64,000 nt of DNA from an uncultured Ectothiorhodospiraceae bacterium (GTDB lineage: Bacteria > Pseudomonadota > Gammaproteobacteria > Nevskiales > Oceanococcaceae): assembly GCA_937141935.1 (NCBI GenBank), contig CAKZQS010000043.1, forward strand, positions 25,152-89,151, written 5' to 3'. Of this stretch, positions 13,238 to 36,393 are shown piece after piece. The position numbers were made by a program, and so were the translations under genes. The notes under the pieces were generated by a model that worked only from the letters and a program-made list of their open reading frames with translations, had not been told where the DNA came from and ran no database searches. Positions within the stretch are counted from its first letter, which is position 1. The number at the start of each line of letters is the position of its first letter.

Positions 13238-13243
13238 AAAAAA

Positions 13244-13263
13244 CGGCCACCCGAAGGTGGCCG
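13244..13263. terminator. Bidirectional intrinsic terminator hairpin between convergent genes
   Basis: CGGCCACC-CGAA-GGTGGCCG forms a perfect 8-bp stem. An A8 tract lies immediately upstream (13236..13243), which is the U-tract for the minus-strand transcript. A T-rich stretch (cttgtttt) lies downstream. Confidence 0.7.
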
Positions 13264-13287
13264 TGGAACTCTTGTTTTGGCCGTGGC

Positions 13288-14732: not shown

Positions 14733-14771
14733 GAAAAGGCTGGCGAAACCGCTCCGGATCTCGCCAGCCTT
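14733..14771 (-). terminator. Putative intrinsic terminator of the dual-subtilase gene
   Basis: On the minus strand, 13 nt after the stop: AAGGCTGGCGA-(14 nt loop)-TCGCCAGCCTT followed by a short U run (TTTCAG). The loop is long and the U-tract short, so confidence is moderate. Confidence 0.5.
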
Positions 14772-14783
14772 CCTTCGCTCAGG

Positions 14784-17700
14784 CTAGGGGATCACGCTGC
14801 CGCAATAGAGGAAGGGATCGTCGGCCGGCGTGTCGTAGCTGTTGAAGAACCAGCCCGGGCCCGGGGCATCCCAGTAGGTCTTGCGACGGCGGATATTGGC
14901 CGTCTGGAAATCGCAAAACTCGGCAGCCTTGGTGCGGCTGCCGCTACCGAAGCCGAGCTGGGCCAGCGTTTCCGCGACCACGGCCTTGTCCGGCAGTGCC
15001 GACAGGTTGCCCCAGCCCAGGGTCGCCCAGGGCGCAGCGTCAATCGGCGGCTGCGCGCCCAGGTCGAAGACCGCGGTGACGGGGTTGTAGTCCTCGAGGC
15101 GGTCGACATAGGCGCCAACTTCCAGCGCACGGCGCAACTGCCAGGTGGTGATGCTTTGGCCCAGCCCGGCGGCCAGCACCGGTTGCCCACCCACGTTGCG
15201 GATGCCGCCGACGTGGCCGAGCGAGCGCCGGGCCTCGAGCAGGACCTTCGAGGCCACGCCGGCCGAACGCGGCGTGGCGAAGCTGGTGCCGCTCACGCGA
15301 TCGTCCAGGCCGGACTCACACTCGAAGCAATAGGGCAGCTGCTGCGTGAAATCGGACACGAAGTCGATGAAGTAGCCGGACACCGTGGTGCGGCCCTCCG
15401 AGCTGCCTTCCTCGATGCCCGCGATGGCTACGGTCCACCAGGGTCCCGCGCCGCCCGCTTCGGGCGTGAAGGGGTCGGCGGAGTTGGCGGCCGAGGAGAA
15501 GTGCACCTTGCCCTGGTCGATCACCGCCTCGGCGGCCGGGCCGGTGAACGGAAGCGGCAGGCCGGTGCCCAGGACGGGGTCCTGGAAGCCGTAGCTGGTC
15601 GACACGATATCCACGGACGGGTGCAAAAAGCCCAGGCTTTCGGCTTGCGCATCGCCGATCGACGCGCCGAACTCGACGAAGAGCACGATGGCTTCCGGGT
15701 TGGCCTGCAATACCGCGGCGGCCGTGCCCACGCCGTGCTCGCCGGAGGTGTCGCCCGGATCCGGGAGGATCGGGCGACGGCCCGGTGCGCTGTCGTAGGA
15801 CACGGCGATCAGGTTGGTGCCCTTGAACCAGTACAACTCGCCAGGCTGGATATTCGCCCAGATCGCCGCGTCGGCGGCGTAGTCGGCGGCGAAGTTGCCG
15901 GTGCGGGTCAGCTCGATCTGGTGCGAGGGCCCGATGCCCAGTTCGGCCAGCACGGCCGGTGTGACCGCCGACGGCGCGGCATTGGCATAGATCGGGCTGC
16001 CGGCATGGAAGTAGTCGTGGTAGGGCAGGGTGCCGGTGTCGAGCACCGACACGATGACCCGCGCGGCATTGTTCGGCGGCGTGCCGCCCGCGGCGATCGT
16101 GACGCGGACCTCACCTTCGAAAGGCGTGTCGGCGCTGACGAAGCCCTGGGTGCGGATCACGTAGTCGCCGTTGATCTCGGGCGCGGCGAAGCTGACGCGT
16201 TCGGCGGCTTCGCCGGCGGCAAGCTGCGTACGCGCCGCGGTCTCGGTGCGGCCATGGGCGTCGACTTCCAAGTCCAGATCCTCGGCCACCAGGTCCCAGC
16301 GAATCTCGACGGTGACCGCGGTCGCGGTGCAGCCGGCCGGCAGGGCCACCTGCACGTTCTCGGTCACCGTGTTGCCACCCAGCGGTGCCGCGTACAGTGC
16401 GGCCGTGCCCACCATGCCGCTGAAGCTGTGCAGCACCTGCTCGCCCGCGGGCAGCGTGCAGCTCGGCGGCGGGGCACCACCCTCGGAGGTGTCGCGCCCG
16501 TCGGCACAGCCGCTGTCGGCCGCATCGATGGCACCATCGCCGTCGTCGTCGAGGCCGTTCGAGCACTGCGTGGTGCCGGCGTCGGTCTCGTCGTTGTCGG
16601 CGCTGGCGGAGCAGCCCGCGTCCTGCATGTCGGTCCAGCCGTCGCCATCGTCGTCCAGGCCGTTACTGCAGGCCGAGGGCGGCGGCGGGTCGGTTTCGTC
16701 ATCGTCGATCGACGACGAGCAGCCCGGGTCCGCCAGGTCGGTCAGGCCGTCACCGTCGTTGTCGACGCCGTCGGCGCATTGCGCCGGTTGCTGCGAAGCT
16801 CGCTGAAACTCCGTAGAGCGCAGCGTGCGCGTCGGCGCCGCGTCGGCGCGGACAACGTCGACCTCCACGGTGAAGGCGGCGCCAAGGTTGAGCAGCGTCT
16901 CGGAGACCTCAATCCGGTAGCGGCCGGTGGCCACAGCATTGGCCGGCGCCTGCGGGGTCAGCACCACTTCCTGCATGCCGCTGGCCAGCGTGTAGGAGGA
17001 GCCGCGCAGCGCGCTGTCGTTGTCCGGGCCATAAACGTCCAGACCCAGCTGATCCACTGCCGATTGCCAGCGCACGACGAAGCGCAACTGCTCGACGTCA
17101 TTGAGGCTGGCCGGCAGCACGAAGTCGAAGGCGTGCGGCACGATGGTGCCGCCTTCGGCGGGGCAGCCGGTGCAGAGCACACCGAGGTAGGTCCCGGCCG
17201 TGGCGCTGCGCTCATAGACCCGCGTCGCGCCGCCGCCGACGTCGACGTCATAGCCATCCTGCGGCTTGTTGCGCTGCAGGGCCGCGGCCACGGCGCCCAG
17301 GGCATCGACATAGCCGGCGCCCACCTCGTGCGGCTGGTAGCCGGGCATCGCCCGCGCCGTGCTCTGCAGGATGTCGTAGACGCCCTCGAAGTCCAGCGCC
17401 GGGTTGGCTTCCAGCATCAGCGCGATGACGCCGACCACGTGCGGGGCGGCCATCGATGTGCCGGAAATCGTGGCGTAGCGCGGGTTCGAGGTGTTGGCCA
17501 GCGGCGTCGAGGTCGCGCCGTTCAACGCGCGCGAGGCGGTGATGCGCGTGCCCGGCGCGGTGATGTCCGGGCCCGGCGCCGTGGTGTTATCCGGCGTACC
17601 GCGCGAGGAGCTGTCGGCCAACTCGTAGTTGCGGTCGCCATTGGCCACGGAGATCACGCAGGGGTGCTGCGCATCGGGGCCGATGGTGTCGTTGGCCGGG

Positions 17701-19691
17701 CCCAGGTTGCCCGCCGCGAACACCGGGATCACGCCGGCGTCGTAGAGCTGCTTGATGGCAAGCGAGCTGGCGCTGGTCGGGTCGAAGCGGAAGCCCGAAC
17801 CCAGGCCGGGGCCGTAGGAGTGGTTGCTGACGCGGATGTTGAAGCGCTCGCGCTGGGTCAGCACATAGTCGATGCCCTCCAGCGAGAACAGATAGGGCGC
17901 GCCCACGTCGACCGCGATGCCGACCACATCGGAGGCCGGTGCCACGCCACGGTACTGGCCGCCGGAGGCGCTGCCGTCGCCGACGATGGTGCCGGCGATA
18001 TGCGTGCCGTGGCCTTCGTTGGTTTCGGTGTTGATCGCCTCGACGGCCTGCGTCTGCAGCATGCGCACGTTGTGCACCACGCCGGCCAGGTCGCCCTGCG
18101 TCTTGTCGACGCCGGTATCGATGATCGCGACACCCACGCCGGCGCCTTGCAGCCCCAGCTCGGGGGTGGCGAAGTGGGCGCGGGCGTCGTCAACGCCGAT
18201 CAGCGGCACCGAGCTGTTCAGCAGCGGCACGTCGGCTGGCGGCGCCCAGAAGGAAATCAGCGGCAGCCCGTCGAGCGTGCTGCGCAGCGACTCGATCCAG
18301 GCCGGCGTCAGCACTTCGGCGTGCACGCGCAGCGCATGCAGCTCGCGGTAGGCGAAGGCACGCTGCCGTTCGGCGGCGCTCAGCGGGCCCAGCGGCTGCA
18401 GCAGGCGCTCCAGCGCCGCATCGCGGCCGGTGGCCGAGGCGAAGCTGAGCACAACATCGCCGGGCAGGTCCCAATCCAGCGTCGGGTCGACGCTGGCGAC
18501 GCCGGCGCCGACCGGCAGGTCATGGAAGCTCACCTCGCAGGCGCTCGGCGGGCCGATGTCCACGGTCACGGTGCCGCGGAAGGTCGTGTTACGGCTGACG
18601 TAACCATAGGCCTCGACGGCGTAGTCGCCGCTGGCCGGGTCGAGCAGGCGGATGCGTTCGACGCCGCGGCCACCGGTGTTGCCGCTCTCGGCCACGCTGC
18701 TGGCGCCGCCGGGCTGGTCCAGGCGCATGTCCAGGTCGTCGCTGACGCCGTCCCACTGGATGGCCACTTCCATCTCGGCAATGTCGCAGCCGCTGGGCAG
18801 CTGCAAGGTATGCGTGGCCGGGGCCGGCGTGCCGGCACCCAGCGCCGTCGTGCCGACCTGGTCCGTCCATTGCTCAATGACGTGCCGGCCCGGGGCCAGC
18901 GCGCAGTTGCCGGCGCCCAGGTCGAGCGAGTAATCGGCATCGTCGTCGAGGATCACCGCGTTATGGCTGCGGCGGCTGCCGAGCCCGGCATTGACGGGGT
19001 TGAACAGGCCCAGACGGATGTTCTCGCGGCCTTCGGTCTCGTAGTCATCGGTGACGGCCAGCTCGATGATTTTGACCCCGGTCTCGCCGTTGGCCCAGTT
19101 CAGCAGGCCACCCTGCTGCGGGAAGTCCACACGGGCGGTCGCACTGCCCCCGGTCGGGGCCCAGCGCACGCTGGCCTCGCCCGTCGAACCGCTGACGCGC
19201 TCCACGGCGATGCGGGTGCCGCGGGTGCCTTCCGCGAAGCGGGTGGAGCGCTCGACGAACTGCAGCACGCCTGCGCCGCTGTCGTTGTCGTCGAGCAGAA
19301 TCTTCAGGTCGCGGTACTTGCCAAAGCCAGCGCCGACGGGGTTGTAGAGCCGCAGGAAGATGGTCTCGCGCCCTTCGCTGCTGTCATCGTCGGTCAGCGC
19401 GAAGGCCACCTGCTTGATGCCGGCCTCGCCGTCATCCCAGCTCAGGACCTCGGCCTGCGCCGGGTAGTCCTGGCCCTGCGTGGCCGTGCCGCCACTGACG
19501 CCAAGCCGGATCGCGGCGACGCCGCTGGCGCCGCCCACCCGCTCGACTTGCAGGGTGACCGAAGCATCCCCTTCGCTGGCCCGGAGCGTGCCGGGAACGA
19601 ACTGAATGGAACCGGCATCGCTCTGAGCGTGCAGGGGCAAACAAAAAACGGCCAGCATGGCCAGCAGGCAAACGCGAAGCGGCGTTAACAT
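14784..19691 (-). CDS. Large secreted multidomain protease with two subtilase (S8) catalytic domains, Calx-beta and beta-sandwich modules
   Basis: 1635 aa with signal peptide MLTPLRVCLLAMLAVFCLPLHAQ. Two Calx-beta-like modules (about aa 27-250). S8 domain 1 has the triad motifs AIIDTGVD (D525), NEGHGTHIAG (H561) and SGTSMAAPHVVG (S746). Three acidic Cys-bounded repeats follow. S8 domain 2 has VSVLDTGT (D1218), GEHGVGTAAA (H1319) and SGTSFATPRSAG (S1470). Codon positions were checked against the DNA. Confidence 0.85.
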   Translation of the reverse strand: MLTPLRVCLLAMLAVFCLPLHAQSDAGSIQFVPGTLRASEGDASVTLQVERVGGASGVAAIRLGVSGGTATQGQDYPAQAEVLSWDDGEAGIKQVAFALTDDDSSEGRETIFLRLYNPVGAGFGKYRDLKILLDDNDSGAGVLQFVERSTRFAEGTRGTRIAVERVSGSTGEASVRWAPTGGSATARVDFPQQGGLLNWANGETGVKIIELAVTDDYETEGRENIRLGLFNPVNAGLGSRRSHNAVILDDDADYSLDLGAGNCALAPGRHVIEQWTDQVGTTALGAGTPAPATHTLQLPSGCDIAEMEVAIQWDGVSDDLDMRLDQPGGASSVAESGNTGGRGVERIRLLDPASGDYAVEAYGYVSRNTTFRGTVTVDIGPPSACEVSFHDLPVGAGVASVDPTLDWDLPGDVVLSFASATGRDAALERLLQPLGPLSAAERQRAFAYRELHALRVHAEVLTPAWIESLRSTLDGLPLISFWAPPADVPLLNSSVPLIGVDDARAHFATPELGLQGAGVGVAIIDTGVDKTQGDLAGVVHNVRMLQTQAVEAINTETNEGHGTHIAGTIVGDGSASGGQYRGVAPASDVVGIAVDVGAPYLFSLEGIDYVLTQRERFNIRVSNHSYGPGLGSGFRFDPTSASSLAIKQLYDAGVIPVFAAGNLGPANDTIGPDAQHPCVISVANGDRNYELADSSSRGTPDNTTAPGPDITAPGTRITASRALNGATSTPLANTSNPRYATISGTSMAAPHVVGVIALMLEANPALDFEGVYDILQSTARAMPGYQPHEVGAGYVDALGAVAAALQRNKPQDGYDVDVGGGATRVYERSATAGTYLGVLCTGCPAEGGTIVPHAFDFVLPASLNDVEQLRFVVRWQSAVDQLGLDVYGPDNDSALRGSSYTLASGMQEVVLTPQAPANAVATGRYRIEVSETLLNLGAAFTVEVDVVRADAAPTRTLRSTEFQRASQQPAQCADGVDNDGDGLTDLADPGCSSSIDDDETDPPPPSACSNGLDDDGDGWTDMQDAGCSASADNDETDAGTTQCSNGLDDDGDGAIDAADSGCADGRDTSEGGAPPPSCTLPAGEQVLHSFSGMVGTAALYAAPLGGNTVTENVQVALPAGCTATAVTVEIRWDLVAEDLDLEVDAHGRTETAARTQLAAGEAAERVSFAAPEINGDYVIRTQGFVSADTPFEGEVRVTIAAGGTPPNNAARVIVSVLDTGTLPYHDYFHAGSPIYANAAPSAVTPAVLAELGIGPSHQIELTRTGNFAADYAADAAIWANIQPGELYWFKGTNLIAVSYDSAPGRRPILPDPGDTSGEHGVGTAAAVLQANPEAIVLFVEFGASIGDAQAESLGFLHPSVDIVSTSYGFQDPVLGTGLPLPFTGPAAEAVIDQGKVHFSSAANSADPFTPEAGGAGPWWTVAIAGIEEGSSEGRTTVSGYFIDFVSDFTQQLPYCFECESGLDDRVSGTSFATPRSAGVASKVLLEARRSLGHVGGIRNVGGQPVLAAGLGQSITTWQLRRALEVGAYVDRLEDYNPVTAVFDLGAQPPIDAAPWATLGWGNLSALPDKAVVAETLAQLGFGSGSRTKAAEFCDFQTANIRRRKTYWDAPGPGWFFNSYDTPADDPFLYCGSVIP
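16482..16778 (-). repeat. Three tandem coding repeats: Cys-bounded acidic DxDxDG-type motif
   Basis: CADGVDNDGDGLTDLADPGC / CSNGLDDDGDGWTDMQDAGC / CSNGLDDDGDGAIDAADSGC, each followed by an acidic linker. They resemble thrombospondin-type-3 / MopE-like Ca2+/metal-binding repeats. Confidence 0.7.
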
Positions 19692-20009
19692 TGGTCAGGA
19701 ACTCCCAGGCAGCACACGGCGCATGCGCGCCGAATTAGTCGGTCGTCAAACCAGACAGCTGCACGTAGGGAAGCCCGCGCGGCGGCAAGGCCACAGCGCG
19801 TACGCGGCATCCATGCCACGCCAATCCCAGATTCTCCAGTACCCGCAGGCCGAGTTCGACAGGGTCGTAATCTCGCCTTGACGGCAATCTATAGTTGTGT
19901 TTCGAGTCTAAGCGAGGCGTCGGAGGCACGCAAATCGCCCCCGTGGACAGGGGTTTGCAGCTGTGTGCGGGGCGTGATTCGCGCCGAGTGTTGCGCCCGG
20001 CGCACCCCC

Positions 20010-31596: not shown

Positions 31597-32799
31597 TCAG
31601 TTCAGCTTGGCGGACAAGCCCACGGTGACCGCATAGCGCTCGAAGTCATCGGCATCGAGCACGGCCTCGCGCTCGACATAACGGTTGCTCAGGTACACCG
31701 ACAGACCCCGGTCCAGCAGCCACGTTCCACGCAGCGCCAGTGCGAAGACATCCTGCTGATTGCCGGAGCCCACGAAGTCCCTGTCCGTGAATTGTAGGGA
31801 AAGGCTGGAATTGAAGCGGGCGGTCCAGGATTGGCGCCAGCGCAGCGTGGTCGAGCGCTCGTCGATGAACTGAGAATTGAAGCGATAGGTCGGGCGGTAG
31901 TTGCGCCCGGACTCCAGGCGAAGACGGGTCCGCAGCGAGGGGTTCCAGTTCAGCCCGGCCTCCCAGTAGAAGCTGTCTCGCTCGGGTTGCGCATCGTCCT
32001 CAGGCGTCCACTCGGTGGTGCCTGCGCGCAAATCACCGCTGGTTTTCGCGGTGGCCTCCCAGGCCACGCCCGCTGCATAGACCTGCGCGGTACCGGAACG
32101 ATCCGGCGTGCCCGCGGCCGTTTCGTCGTAGTCGGTGTCGCTTTGGCTGACGTAGAGCAGCAGCGCCGTTTTTGGCGACAGCGTCAGGCTCGCGGTCAGC
32201 GACGGCGTATGCGTCTGCCGGTCCAGGAAGCGGGTGACGTCCTCGTTGGTGGTATAGCGCCGGTCGAGGTAGTCATAGGCCAGCCGCAAGGCCATGCGCG
32301 TGGCAAAGCGCTCGCCGATGACATAGCTGGCGCCAAGCTGGGTTTGCTGCCACTCGTCCAGGGATCGGTCCGGCTCGACGCCGGAGCCTTCCGTGCGCAC
32401 CGTGCCGAAGGGGTCGTGGTCGGTGCGAAAGCGCCCGTCGACCTGCAGCACCTGCTCGCCGGGCATCAGCAGGGCCAGCCGGGCCGAGGTGTCGCTATCG
32501 ACGTAGTTGTCTTCGTTGCTGAAGCTGAAGGCACCAGCCTCGATGGCGGCCCGCGTATTGAAGACGAAGCGGCGCGCGTCGCGGCGCAAGGCCACGCTCG
32601 GCGCGAGCACGGCGCCGACAACGGGCTGGGTCTCGTTGCGCTCGAAATAGAAGTTGTCGAAGTAGCGCAGCGAGGAGTCCAGCTCCACGTCGACGACATT
32701 GGCGCCTTGGCCCTGCGCGCCCAAGGGCGCCAGCGCAGCCAGCACGGCGGTGGCCAGACCCCGGGCGCGAAGGCCCGGTTGGGAGAGGCTCATCGGCAT
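31597..32799 (-). CDS. Outer-membrane beta-barrel protein associated with EPS export (EpsL / composite-translocon type)
   Basis: Signal peptide (LATAVLAALAPLGAQG). 400 aa with alternating-hydrophobicity strands rich in Y/R/D/T/S throughout. Sits immediately upstream of the short OPX gene. Confidence 0.55.
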   Translation of the reverse strand: MPMSLSQPGLRARGLATAVLAALAPLGAQGQGANVVDVELDSSLRYFDNFYFERNETQPVVGAVLAPSVALRRDARRFVFNTRAAIEAGAFSFSNEDNYVDSDTSARLALLMPGEQVLQVDGRFRTDHDPFGTVRTEGSGVEPDRSLDEWQQTQLGASYVIGERFATRMALRLAYDYLDRRYTTNEDVTRFLDRQTHTPSLTASLTLSPKTALLLYVSQSDTDYDETAAGTPDRSGTAQVYAAGVAWEATAKTSGDLRAGTTEWTPEDDAQPERDSFYWEAGLNWNPSLRTRLRLESGRNYRPTYRFNSQFIDERSTTLRWRQSWTARFNSSLSLQFTDRDFVGSGNQQDVFALALRGTWLLDRGLSVYLSNRYVEREAVLDADDFERYAVTVGLSAKLN

Positions 32800-32824: not shown

Positions 32825-33110
32825 TCAGGAGGGGCTGGGCACCGACGTCGGCGTCGGCGTCGGCGTCGGCGGGGGCAAGGACGGCGTGGGCGTCGGCGTC
32901 ACCGTCGCGGTCGGCGTCGGGCTCGGTGTTGCCGACGCCGTCGGCGTAGGCGTCGCGCTCGGGGCCAGCGTCGGCGTGGGCGTCAGGCTCGGCGGCGGTG
33001 GCGTCGGTGTGGGCGACGCACTGGGCCCGGGTGTCGGGCTGGTCGTCGGCGACGGGCTGGGCAGCGGCGTCGGCGTGACCCGTGGCGAGGGGCTGGGCTG
33101 TTCGATGCGA
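32825..33110 (-). repeat. Low-complexity coding repeat (GGCGTC/GGCGTG periodicity) encoding the Pro/Thr/Ser tail
   Basis: Runs of ggcgtcggcgtcggcgtc on the plus strand, translating to TPTPTP/SPSP on the minus strand. Confidence 0.8.
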
Positions 33111-33781
33111 ACCTCGCCGTCGACCGTCGGGTCACCCTGGGGGTCAATCCCCAGTGACGCCTCGACCCGCAGCACGCTGGGGGGCGGGTCGATCAGCACG
33201 ATCACCGGGCCGTTGGGCTGGCTGACCTGCACGGTCTGGCGCTCGCGCAGTTCGCGGGTGTCGCCCCCCGAACCCACGATGACGACGCCGCCTGCGCCGA
33301 GGTCATGGACGAGCATCCCCGCCCCATTGACGGCCGGTTCGACGATCACGATAAAGGCGGACTGGCTGCCGGTCACGAAGCCGTAGGGCGTGTTGACCAT
33401 GAACAGGTTGGGCGCCGAGTCGGCGATCGCCCCGAGCTGCACCTCCATGGCCCCGGAAACGAGCCGCAGCGCGGCGTGGCCGGCGCCGGTGGCCGGATTC
33501 CATTCGAAACTCTCAAGCACCAGGGTGCTGGCACCGACGAGGCGCAGCCGGGTTCCGTCCACCAGCGCGAGCTCAAGCATCGAGCCGCTCGTGCTGCGGA
33601 TGACGTCACCGAGCCGCAAGTCGGAAGGGGGGGCGAGTGCAAACGCGCTCGCGCCACGCGTGAGCGTGCCGGCACCGTCCACGGCCGTCACCCGTCCCAA
33701 CACGCCATCATCCTGTGCACTCGCCTGCCAGCTCAGCAGGCCCAGTAGCAGCGCGCTGAGGAAGTGTTTCACCCCTTGCAT
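32825..33781 (-). CDS. Secreted FecR-domain protein with long Pro/Thr/Ser-rich C-terminal tail
   Basis: ATG 33781 gives the signal peptide [23 protein letters not shown]. FecR-like core [16 protein letters not shown] ... [33 protein letters not shown]. About 95 C-terminal residues of (P/T/S) repeats. Confidence 0.65.
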
Positions 33782-33870
33782 CGCGGCGCCCTCTCCATTA
33801 GCAACCGACGCCATTTTGCGCTGCCACGGGGCGCTGCGCAAACGCCTGCCCCCTTTCGGGGCATGCGGGC

Positions 33871-36393
33871 TTATTCCTCGAGGTTGTAACGCACCTGCAC
33901 GGGGCTGTTGCGCACGTCCTCTTCGCGGTAGCGCAGGCGCACCCATTCCTTGCGCCCATAGGCCTCGGTCAGGTCGCGGTAATAGGGCGAGGCCGGGTCG
34001 GTGGACTGGCTGTAGGTGACGAAGGCCTCGGCGCGCGGCTCGCCGGTGACCGGGTCCCAGGTCACGGCCTGGATGTAGCTGTTGCCGTAGGTCACGTTGT
34101 AGCCCTCGTCGCTCAGGCCCCCCTGCACGCCAGGAAAGCTTTCGGACGGCGTGATGCTGCGCGCGTTGGCGATGGTGAAGCTGCCGGTAAAGCTTTCGCC
34201 ACCGAAGATCGGGATGCGTGGGCCATCGAGATGGATGCCGCTGCGTTGAATCTCCCCCATCGGCGTGTCAAAGCCGAAGGGCGAGTTCGCGACGGTGGTG
34301 ATGGCGTCGGCGAAGGCCTGCTCGATGTTCGGCGCCAGCAGGTTCAGGCCGCTGGGCGTGTTGACCGGGTCATTGGTCGAAAACGGCGTCAGCCATTGGG
34401 TGCTGACGGGCCCGGCGGGCAGCAGGTTGCCGACGTTGCGCCAGAATTCGCGCCAGATGTGGCCGCCCGCCGAATCCAGGTTGTTGCGCCCGTCCCAGTT
34501 CGTGAGCACCGCGCAGGCCTCGGTCGCATCCACCGGCCCGGCGCTGCCCAGCAGGGTCGGCAGCGCGCAATAGCCGCTGAGCACGTCGGCCAGCGCCAGC
34601 TCGGCCGAATAGACCCGCGAGCTGAGCACGATGTCCTTGAGCTGCTCATAGCTGAACTTGTCGCCTTCCAGGCCGTCGCTGCCATCCAGACGCTGCTGCA
34701 CCTGGCGGATGCACAGGCGCGTGCGCAGCGTGCGCTCGGCCTCCTCGTCACCAATGATGCCCGCGAAGCCGGTGATCGGCTCCTCGGGGTTGGTCAGCCA
34801 GTAGCTGTCATTGCAGTTGTGCACCCAGTCGGCGCGCTCCAGCGTGGGCAGGTTGCCGGGGCCGAAGATGCCGGGCGCCGGCGCGTCGGGGTCGGTGTCC
34901 CACTCGCAGGCGGCGCGCGAGCCATCCAGCAGCGGCAGCCCGGGCACCAGCTGGCCAAAGGCGGCCGCCAGCGGCTGCGCCGAGCAGGTGGTGACCTTGC
35001 TGTCCGGCACATTGGGCACCACGGTCACGTCGCCGTAGTACACCGGCTGGCCGGGGCCTGCCGCGACGGTGTTGACCCAGGGCACGCCCAGCACGCTGGC
35101 GTGCAGGTCCTTGAACTCCTGCAGCGACTTGGCCCGGTTCCAGCGGAAGAACTGGTTCATCAGGCGGTTGTTCTCGGCGTTGGCATCGCGCAGCGTGTAG
35201 GCCTTGGCCGGGCTCCATTCCAGCACCGGCACGCCGGAGACCTGCAGCTCCAGCATCGGCCCGAACTGGCTGGTGTACAGCGTGCGGGTTTCGGTGCTGA
35301 CCGAGCCATCATCCTCAAGGATCTCCACACTGATCTCGCGCGCGTCCATGTCGCGGATCTCGCCCTCGTAGATGTACTGCGTGGGGTCGAGCGGGTTCAG
35401 CGTGAGCTCATAAAAGGTGAAGCGGTAGGCGGTGGACACCGTGTGACTCCAGGCGAACTGGTCGGTAAAGCCGATCAGTGCCGCCGGTACGCCGTACAGG
35501 CCCACGCCCATGATGTTGGTGTCCGGCAGGATGCCGTGCGCCAGGTACAGCCGCTCTGTGCCCGTCCACGGGAAGTGCGGGTTGCCGAAGAGCATCGAGG
35601 AGCCGTCGACGGTGGCCTCCGGCCCCAGGCCGTACATGTTCGAGGCGATGGGCAGGCCGTTGGCCAGCGGGAATTCCTCGGCCGGCAGCGCGGCGATGTC
35701 CGCCGGGTTGACCGGCAAGGGCAGGTTGTCGGGGCCGGGCGGCTGGGCCCCCGCGATCTCGTTGACGAAGACGCTGGAGGAGGCCAGCACCACCAGCCGG
35801 AAATAGCGGCGGTAGATGTCCATCGGTTCGATGGGGCCGATGTACTCGGCGGCCGCGCAGTCGGCATGCCGGCCCGGGTGCTCGCCGGCGCGCAACTCGC
35901 GCACATAGCGGTTGTAGCCCGCCACGAAGCCCTCGGTGGCGGCGATGGCCTCGGGGTCCGAGCCTGCGACGATCGGGGCGATGGCCTCGGGCGTCGCCAC
36001 ATGCTTCCAGAAGAAGTCCGACTCGACGTTGCTGGCCGTCGCGCCGTTGGCCACGATCGTGTAGCTGCCGTCGCGGCCCAGGAACTTGCTGCGCTCGCCG
36101 CGGATGGTGATCAGGTCCTCGGCCAGCACGCAGAGGTTATCTTCGGCGTGCACGTAGCCATAGCCGTAGCCAAAGCCGCGAAAGTCATCGGCAAAGATGT
36201 GCGGGATGCCGAACTCGGTGCGGATGACCTCGGCCTTCAGCGGGGCGTCGGCGCCATCGCCGATGCCGCCATCGGGCTCGACGGGCAGCGGCGGCTGGCC
36301 GCCGCCTTCTGTGGCCGGGCGGCCCCCCTCGCCGCAGGCGGCAAACAGCAGGGCGGGGGCAAGCAGCAACAGCGTGCGCGGCAGTCGGGCCAT
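33871..36393 (-). CDS. Penicillin-acylase-family Ntn hydrolase lipoprotein (AHL-acylase PvdQ/QuiP-like)
   Basis: 840 aa. Lipobox LLFAAC. N-terminal [14 protein letters not shown]. Predicted autoprocessing/nucleophile site [10 protein letters not shown] (Ser251). NPHFPW motif just downstream. Confidence 0.8.

Follow-up and report, generated by a model that had tools for sequence, protein, structure and literature searches.

A 64,000-nucleotide (nt) stretch of DNA from an uncultured Ectothiorhodospiraceae bacterium (GenBank assembly GCA_937141935.1, contig CAKZQS010000043.1, positions 25,152 to 89,151 of the forward strand; hereafter the window, whose own numbering is used) carries on its reverse strand an open reading frame (ORF) at 14784..19691 for a 1635-amino-acid (aa) protein. 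The ORF was found as an earlier, sequence-only reading of the window had described it, and sequence comparison and structure prediction indicate that its product joins a canonical subtilase of peptidase family S8 (domain 1) to a divergent subtilase domain of a kind here called C-type (domain 2). Several bacterial phyla have the same pairing, so that by sequence comparison the protein is a member of an unstudied protease subfamily and not a one-off. In fold and chemistry it is a subtilase rather than a system of a new kind; the real interest lies in an uncharacterised, poorly modelled subtilase clade and in the repeated assembly of that clade into polyprotease chains.

The second subtilase domain

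The sequence-only reading held that both modules are subtilases with complete Asp/His/Ser triads. All six residues and their codons, re-read in the DNA, stand at the positions claimed: D525 (GAT, 18117-18119), H561 (CAC, 18009-18011) and S746 (TCG, 17454-17456) in domain 1, and D1218 (GAC, 16038-16040), H1319 (CAC, 15735-15737) and S1470 (AGC, 15282-15284) in domain 2. In a Pfam scan, domain 1 passes the PF00082 cut-off of 21.8 bits with 148.9 bits (E 2.5e-43, profile positions 1-288 of 288), whereas domain 2 alone scores 18.3 bits and falls under it (E 0.0016, profile positions 4-254). No NCBIfam model covers domain 2, and a phmmer search of it against PDB sequences gave spurious Fab matches only. 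A family profile run against the PDB matched in its thrombospondin type 3 (TSP3), PKD and PPC parts only, the catalytic part having no significant match.

Three independent lines, namely a structural model with a fold search, a profile-profile alignment and conservation within the family, argue that domain 2 belongs to the subtilase fold. The AlphaFold2 (AF2) model, built on a 63-sequence alignment, has a predicted local distance difference test score (pLDDT) of 90.6 and a predicted template modelling score (pTM) of 0.93. Searched with Foldseek, it yielded 121 PDB matches at E<=1e-3, the top 50 of which all belong to the subtilase clan (49 S8 and one kumamolisin, probability 1.0). Matches include S1P, PagA, Kex2, subtilisin BPN' and Tk-subtilisin, at 13-17% identity and with template modelling (TM) scores of 0.6-0.7 that are scaled on the length of small targets. 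In hhalign, a profile of 183 family domains matched one built from 33 canonical S8 domains (98.9% probability, E 1.2e-16), pairing D1218 with D525, H1319 with H561 and S1470 with S746, so that the two triads align, and pairing the oxyanion Asn N1403 with N662. A run of the family alignment against the single domain 1 sequence, which aligned the Ser motif only (probability 3.8%), is superseded by the profile-profile run.

Among the 183 family domains the catalytic residues are conserved at 93% (D), 95% (H), 96% (N) and 95% (S); the same four are invariant in the 63-sequence alignment, and both catalytic sets are invariant in 23 proteins with an S8 domain followed by a C-type domain (S8-C). The domain 2 motifs read VLDTG, EHGVGT, SAANS and SGTSFATP, and further subtilase motifs are kept, among them the His four residues past D-S/T-G (D-S/T-G-x-x-x-x-H), the S-x-G strand and G-T-S-x-x-x-P. 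Domain 2 has no propeptide; a further insert follows its Ser helix, and its C-terminal extension is stapled by conserved Cys residues.

Pseudoproteases typically lose triad residues. A reading of domain 2 as a non-catalytic, pseudoprotease-like binding or regulatory module, with domain 1 alone cleaving, is opposed by the conservation of Asp, His, Ser and oxyanion Asn, by the additional motifs kept and by stand-alone C-type forms with nothing else attached. It draws some support from the sub-threshold Pfam score, from the low identity to solved subtilases and from CspBA, the best-known tandem subtilase, in which the CspA domain is a pseudoprotease (PMC7200643, PMC3567191); on balance we give it a slight chance. 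With Asp, His, Ser and oxyanion Asn all in place, domain 2 most likely works as a serine peptidase and has a specificity of its own.

Catalytic Asp and His stand 101 residues apart in domain 2 versus 36 in domain 1, and the approximately 65 extra residues form an insert that is well ordered in the model (pLDDT 93-99) and strongly conserved. Should this insert cap the active site, domain 2 could be an acyl-transfer enzyme (a transpeptidase, ligase or macrocyclase-like enzyme) and not a hydrolase. The spacing is comparable to that of the cyanobactin macrocyclases, the insert occupies the same topological place as their capping helices, and PagA, PatA and PatG are among the fold matches; the fold matches do not, however, favour cyanobactin enzymes over ordinary subtilisins, and the sequence relation to PatA and PatG is insignificant (E 0.82). 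No gene context typical of ribosomally synthesised peptides with post-translational modifications (RiPPs), or any other conserved context, was seen in about 80 loci, and the fusion partners of C-type domains are degradative peptidases and adhesion or secretion modules. The probability left to this alternative is very small. If the insert did shield an acyl-enzyme, C-type domains could be extracellular or lipid-anchored transpeptidases or ligases that might attach or cyclise surface peptides; subtilases would then have a further functional class, one that gene transfer would have carried into at least five phyla.

The first subtilase domain and its predicted propeptide

Domain 1 is canonical, with D525 in IIDTG, H561 in HGTH, N662 in AAGN and S746 in GTSMAAP, and none of the four varies among 23 two-domain homologs. 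Residues 380-830 were modelled with AF2 (pLDDT 84.6). Within the roughly 120-residue stretch ahead of domain 1, the model shows an alpha/beta unit that is ordered at about 411-489 and then passes into a linker of low confidence; block-mean pLDDT over the first 100 positions is 88-97. The best PDB fold match of this segment in Foldseek is ProN-Tk-SP (3afg; TMq 0.71, 28% identity, E 4e-29), and the other top matches are Pro-subtilisin E, fervidolysin and pro-Tk-subtilisin, that is, unprocessed pro-forms. ProN-Tk-SP aligns over 419-435 columns and the pro-forms as a group over about 420-460, against approximately 320 for mature subtilisins, and the segment is also seen in the consensus of the 23 homologs. 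An I9-like propeptide, which the sequence-only reading had missed, is thus predicted ahead of domain 1; since the Pfam scan gave no match to the I9 profile there, the support for it is that of the fold.

Selection was gauged against P0004, the nearest ortholog (1634 aa, same architecture). Domain 2 is 82% identical to its counterpart, with a ratio of nonsynonymous to synonymous substitution (dN/dS) of about 0.12; the acidic repeats follow (72%, about 0.13), then domain 1 (74%, about 0.20) and the Calx-beta and sandwich modules (43-59%, 0.29-0.54, with 0.33-0.54 for Calx-beta and sandwich b1). These ratios are rough because dS is saturated at about 1. As estimated here, both catalytic domains are under purifying selection, which is strongest on the divergent domain 2.

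Module arrangement and gene signals

Features of the chain, of its surroundings and of its paralogs are collected in Table 1. The signal peptide, judged by eye from the translation, has a basic n-region, a hydrophobic core and LHA ahead of the predicted cut (LPLHA/QS), and the orthologs P0004 and P0014 likewise begin with signal-like peptides. Neither Pfam nor NCBIfam scans of the protein found a PEP-CTERM, autotransporter, type I secretion system (T1SS) or type IX secretion system (T9SS) sorting family. The earlier description of a secreted protein lacking a recognisable C-terminal sorting signal therefore agrees with the present prediction, and the accessory modules it listed are likewise borne out. 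Calx-beta (PF03160) scores 80.6 bits in two stretches (threshold 27, E 1.2e-22), and the two copies are 45% identical to each other (E 3e-33). The three DxDxDG-type, Cys-bounded repeats match NF033662 in three stretches at residues 968-1065 (nt from 16482 to about 16790) with 71.6 bits against a cut-off of 41, and in a family profile run against the PDB the equivalent repeats of relatives match Ca-binding repeats of thrombospondin and COMP.

Beta-sandwich spacers are indeed present: b1 (residues 262-380) and b3 (1077-1200) are PPC-like and 35% identical (E 1e-23), and b1 comes just under the threshold of the Pfam PPC profile, with a weak match of 23.9 bits at residues 309-363 (cut-off 25.9). 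The third, b2, has weak similarity to b1 (24% identity, E 9e-6) and no match in the Pfam scan. By alignment consensus most family members have a b3-type module ahead of their C-type domain, and the family profile of this module matches the C-terminal beta-jelly-roll of Tk-SP (E 6e-4). The chain terminates inside the conserved C-type domain, with the DPF(I/L)YC motif of the family.

Table 1. Features of the two-subtilase protein, flanking elements and C-type paralogs. Coordinates are those of the window unless a contig is given; a slash marks the predicted cleavage site.
Feature	Residues	Coordinates	Strand	Basis or remark
Sec signal peptide (MLTPLRVCLLAMLAVFCLPLHA/QS), predicted	1-22	19626..19691	-	Read from translation
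Two Calx-beta domains	~24-135 and ~136-255	18927..19622	-	Pfam PF03160
PPC-like beta-sandwich b1	~256-385	18537..18926	-	Weak Pfam PPC match
I9-like N-propeptide of domain 1, predicted, with low-confidence linker	~411-489 plus linker	18177..18536	-	AF2 fold
Canonical subtilase domain 1 (D525, H561, N662, S746)	~506-815	17247..18176	-	PF00082
Beta-sandwich b2, past domain 1	~816-955	16827..17246	-	Weak similarity to b1
Three acidic double-disulfide (TSP3-like, DxDxDG) repeats	968-1065	16482..16826	-	NCBIfam NF033662
PPC-like beta-sandwich b3, ahead of domain 2	~1071-1205	16077..16481	-	35% identity to b1
Divergent C-type subtilase domain 2 (D1218, H1319, N1403, S1470)	~1206-1635	14787..16076	-	AF2 fold, hhalign, conservation
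Terminator-like hairpin and UUUUC		14733..14772	-	Begins 12 nt past stop codon (14784-14786)
Downstream secreted protein, signal peptide MKQFWAAAALIAASVPATAQ	434 aa	13288-14592	-	No Pfam match
C-type lipoprotein paralog		G000:C39:10846-12129	-	One of loci L080-L082
C-type lipoprotein paralog		G000:C45:107558-108796	+	One TAA within matched stretch; one of loci L080-L082
C-type lipoprotein paralog		G000:C46:122857-124104	+	One of loci L080-L082

The protease ORF has a G+C content of 0.69, 0.52 and 0.89 at codon positions one to three, typical of a genuine gene at the approximately 70% G+C of the window and genome. A 1510-aa frame antisense to it on the forward strand (15156..19688; 0.89/0.52/0.69) was rejected: because its first position has the 0.89, it is the mirror-image shadow of a high-G+C gene and not a gene. 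A GGGAG motif stands about 10 nt 5' of the protease ATG. No sigma-70-like promoter was found by consensus scan in the 318-nt non-coding gap (19692-20009) between the upstream glycosyltransferase family 4 (GT4) gene and the protease start. At the other end, a consensus terminator scan did not list the hairpin past the stop codon, which was revealed by folding (minimum free energy -35.2 kcal/mol, z -4.5, none of 200 shuffles equally stable). With the UUUUC that follows it, this hairpin gives the gene the terminator-like element of its own that the sequence-only reading had claimed.

Recurrence of the pairing

Two subtilase domains on one chain had been called unusual, which is overstated, because fusion of a C-type domain to a canonical S8 domain recurs: among 204 fetched proteins, 34 carry both. 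The most frequent architecture is the C-type domain alone (149/204), followed by S8-C (25/204) and C-S8-C (7/204), with one protein each for C-C-S8-C, C-C and C-S8. In named genome records S8-C occurs in metagenome-assembled genomes (MAGs) of Thermoanaerobaculia, Rhodothermales, Rubrivirga, Bacteroidetes and Pseudomonadota, and C-S8-C in one MAG of Nevskiaceae and in a cultured species, Hydrocarboniphaga daqingensis (strain CGMCC 1.7049; L027, a 2194-aa ORF). P0002 (2824 aa), P0084 (3412 aa), L027 and L016 are longer polyprotease chains still, in which a canonical S8 is joined by two or three C-type domains (C-S8-C, C-C-S8-C). C-type domains are also fused to Peptidase_S15 in P0011, P0013, P0049 and P0074, and some relatives carry PKD, cadherin-like or T9SS sorting modules; a fusion to a BNR/sialidase-like domain was seen in P0076.

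The exact order of two Calx-beta domains, S8 and C-type was seen only in P0004, in P0014 (without the weak PPC match) and partly in P0013, and no close ortholog of the 1635-aa chain was found in four genomes of the same genus (best match 56%). In a FastTree tree of C-type domains the window copy falls in a small supported clade (0.976) with P0004, P0014, P0013, P0011, P0085 and the stand-alone P0086. This clade stands apart from the main run of S8-coupled copies, so the pairing probably arose or was reshuffled more than once. A literature search for tandem bacterial subtilases yielded CspBA-type precedents only, and a 2008 architecture survey makes no mention of tandem S8.

Distribution of the C-type clade

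An exhaustive HMMER search of 1.84 billion representatives returned only 419 clusters (50% identity) at E ≤ 1e-3 and 98 at E ≤ 1e-30, and on sequence the C-type is a small clade that stands apart from the very large remainder of S8. Across phyla, its members share approximately 45-55% identity. Named records with the closest relatives are from Nevskiales (gammaproteobacteria), where titled records cover Solimonas, Sinimarinibacterium, Fontimonas, Hydrocarboniphaga, Stagnimonas and Oceanococcus; other titled bacterial records are from Pyrinomonadaceae, Thermoanaerobaculia, Actinomycetota, Rhodothermales, Bacteroidetes, Anaerolineae and Verrucomicrobiia, and one partial protein is from Thermoplasmatota. 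In public databases they bear generic names (hypothetical, PKD domain-containing, S8 family peptidase, T9SS sorting domain-containing), and the family is not a common one of known function. In a collection of genome contigs, a query with the single domain found no relative, whereas an alignment-based scan did. Among 40 relatives of the window's genome, the C-type domain was detected in 13 of 14 same-family genomes and in two other families of the order, and not in the remaining five families searched.

Three more C-type copies occur in the genome from which the window comes (3.57 Mb, 98% complete). They are stand-alone proteins of about 450 aa in which a predicted lipoprotein signal peptide (ending LLSAC, LTLSAC or LLAGC) is followed directly by the catalytic domain, with no propeptide. 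Two of them pass the PF00082 cut-off (35.8 and 24.7 bits); together with domain 1 of the protease and 12 other genes they make up 15 places above that cut-off in the genome.

This rare cross-phylum subtilase-fold clade is largely missed or generically named by present profile libraries and merits its own family model. With their complete catalytic set, lack of a propeptide, lipoprotein forms and repeated building into giant polyprotease chains with S8 and S15, C-type domains are of interest to subtilase enzymology, especially for propeptide-free folding and for the large Asp-His insert.

Genomic context

The glycan setting that had been described is real: the window is a large glycan island with a PF00953 initiating transferase, GT2, GT4 and GT8 enzymes, sulfotransferases, two Wzy_C proteins, a Wzc-like kinase, MBOAT, rml genes and a 1934-aa multi-GT protein. 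The island also contains genes for a BBP2_2 putative beta-barrel porin (31597-32799, reverse strand), a FecR-domain protein (32825-33946, reverse) and an 840-aa penicillin-amidase-family protein (33871-36393, reverse) that overlaps the FecR-domain gene by 76 nt as called. An identical copy of the two-subtilase protein lies on 24 metagenome contigs.

The sequence-only reading had named the processing of a surface protein or glycan-anchored layer among possible roles. In a fuller form of this idea, the Calx-beta and acidic modules would tether a matrix-associated processing protease to the island's sulfated or acidic polysaccharide, there to mature or remodel a surface or matrix protein. In its favour, the gene lies between two glycan operons (with GT2, GT4, GT8, sulfotransferase, Wzy, Wzc-like, MBOAT and rml genes), a GT4 gene on the same strand lies 318 nt upstream of it, and the arrangement is identical in 4/4 places among the matches listed. 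The linkage is, however, not kept in orthologs: P0004, whose C-type domain is 81% identical, comes after an AMP-ligase-like gene, P0014 sits between nadK/recN and hrcA, and P0013 adjoins hrcA-grpE-dnaK-dnaJ. All-against-all clustering of flanking ORFs found no flanking gene family in more than 8 of about 80 loci, and the gene has its own terminator. Because the orthologs sit beside hrcA, nadK or an AMP-ligase-like gene and not beside glycan genes, the glycan-linked role is unsupported, and we regard it as unlikely.

The downstream 434-aa protein, which had been called lectin-like and secreted, does have a predicted signal peptide; the label lectin-like finds no family match or conserved linkage behind it. 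Its gene is followed by a clear terminator at 13243-13264, and its only relatives are remote (27-34% identical), in five genomes of the same family. It does not travel with the protease: in G007, the sole genome with both on one contig, the two lie about 600 kb apart.

Proposed function

The reading we favour, and consider reasonably probable, is that of a Sec-exported, Ca-dependent modular multi-protease for extracellular protein degradation. Domain 1 would mature as a classical pro-subtilase, its I9-like propeptide acting as a folding chaperone and being removed autocatalytically; the same cut would also detach the N-terminal Calx-beta/PPC block. Domain 2 would add another serine peptidase, one that needs no propeptide and has a specificity of its own. 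Ca2+ most likely binds to the accessory modules (Calx-beta, PPC-like and the acidic, TSP3-like repeats), and outside the cell these would stabilise or tether the enzyme; the outer membrane would be crossed by the type II secretion system (T2SS), and the role would be nutritional rather than one of specific processing.

The fusion of C-type domains to other peptidases (S8, S15) and the PKD, cadherin-like and T9SS modules of relatives suggest a degradative role, as do the 15 PF00082 places and three secretin genes of the genome, which point to a strongly proteolytic, secretion-competent organism, and the absence, in the flanking-ORF clustering, of a conserved neighbour marking a dedicated substrate. 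Three observations weigh against it. Two Calx-beta domains and a PPC-like sandwich N-terminal to a propeptide are atypical, the gene lies inside a sulfated-glycan biosynthesis island downstream of a same-strand GT4 operon, and members of different phyla share about 50% identity, more than would be expected of a protease for general scavenging, which could mean a more specific, constrained function. In Nevskiales and similar biofilm or interface bacteria, polyprotease chains of this kind are probably major secreted enzymes.

Comparison with known systems

Domain 1 and the segment upstream of it resemble the unprocessed propeptide-S8 form of Tk-SP and Tk-subtilisin from Thermococcus kodakarensis (3afg, 2e1p) and of fervidolysin (1r6v), and for the PPC-like sandwiches the likeness is to the C-terminal beta-jelly-roll of Tk-SP, which binds Ca (E ~6e-4). 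In contrast to the Tk-SP type, the predicted propeptide is internal, coming after approximately 380 residues of Calx-beta and PPC-like domains, and the chain does not end with domain 1 but has acidic repeats and another, divergent catalytic domain after it.

CspBA of Clostridioides difficile, a germination protease that is a tandem subtilase fusion (PMC3567191, PMC7200643), is the closest known chain with two subtilase-fold domains on one polypeptide. Both triads are intact in the window protein, whereas the CspA half is a pseudoprotease, and the corresponding NCBIfam model NF040809 scores the window protein at 20 bits against a cut-off of 1250. CspBA is a Firmicute spore protein without Calx-beta or acidic repeats, and the second domain here is of another, propeptide-less clade.

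The cyanobactin enzymes PatA, PagA, PatG and PagG share the subtilisin fold, PagA being the second-best fold match of domain 2, and the macrocyclases share the enlarged Asp-His segment; the PagGmac triad is Asp29-His113-Ser274, and PatG has capping helices (bioRxiv 10.1101/2020.03.17.996157). Sequence similarity is not significant (for PatA, E 0.82 with the family profile against the PDB), and no RiPP context was found in the roughly 80 loci. The cyanobactin enzymes are cytoplasmic, whereas the window protein is predicted to be secreted and its paralogs to be lipid-anchored.

The nearest likeness is to the C-type clade itself, with members in Solimonas marina, in Fontimonas (a "PKD domain-containing protein"), in the C-S8-C chain of Hydrocarboniphaga daqingensis and in T9SS proteins of Rhodothermales and Bacteroidetes. 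Domain 2 is a full member, 45-81% identical to the others, with the 48 invariant positions of the clade (D/H/N/S and the Cys residues among them) and the same preceding PPC-like module. The window copy joins the C-type domain to two Calx-beta domains and a canonical S8 subtilase, a combination otherwise seen only in P0004, P0014 and, in part, P0013.

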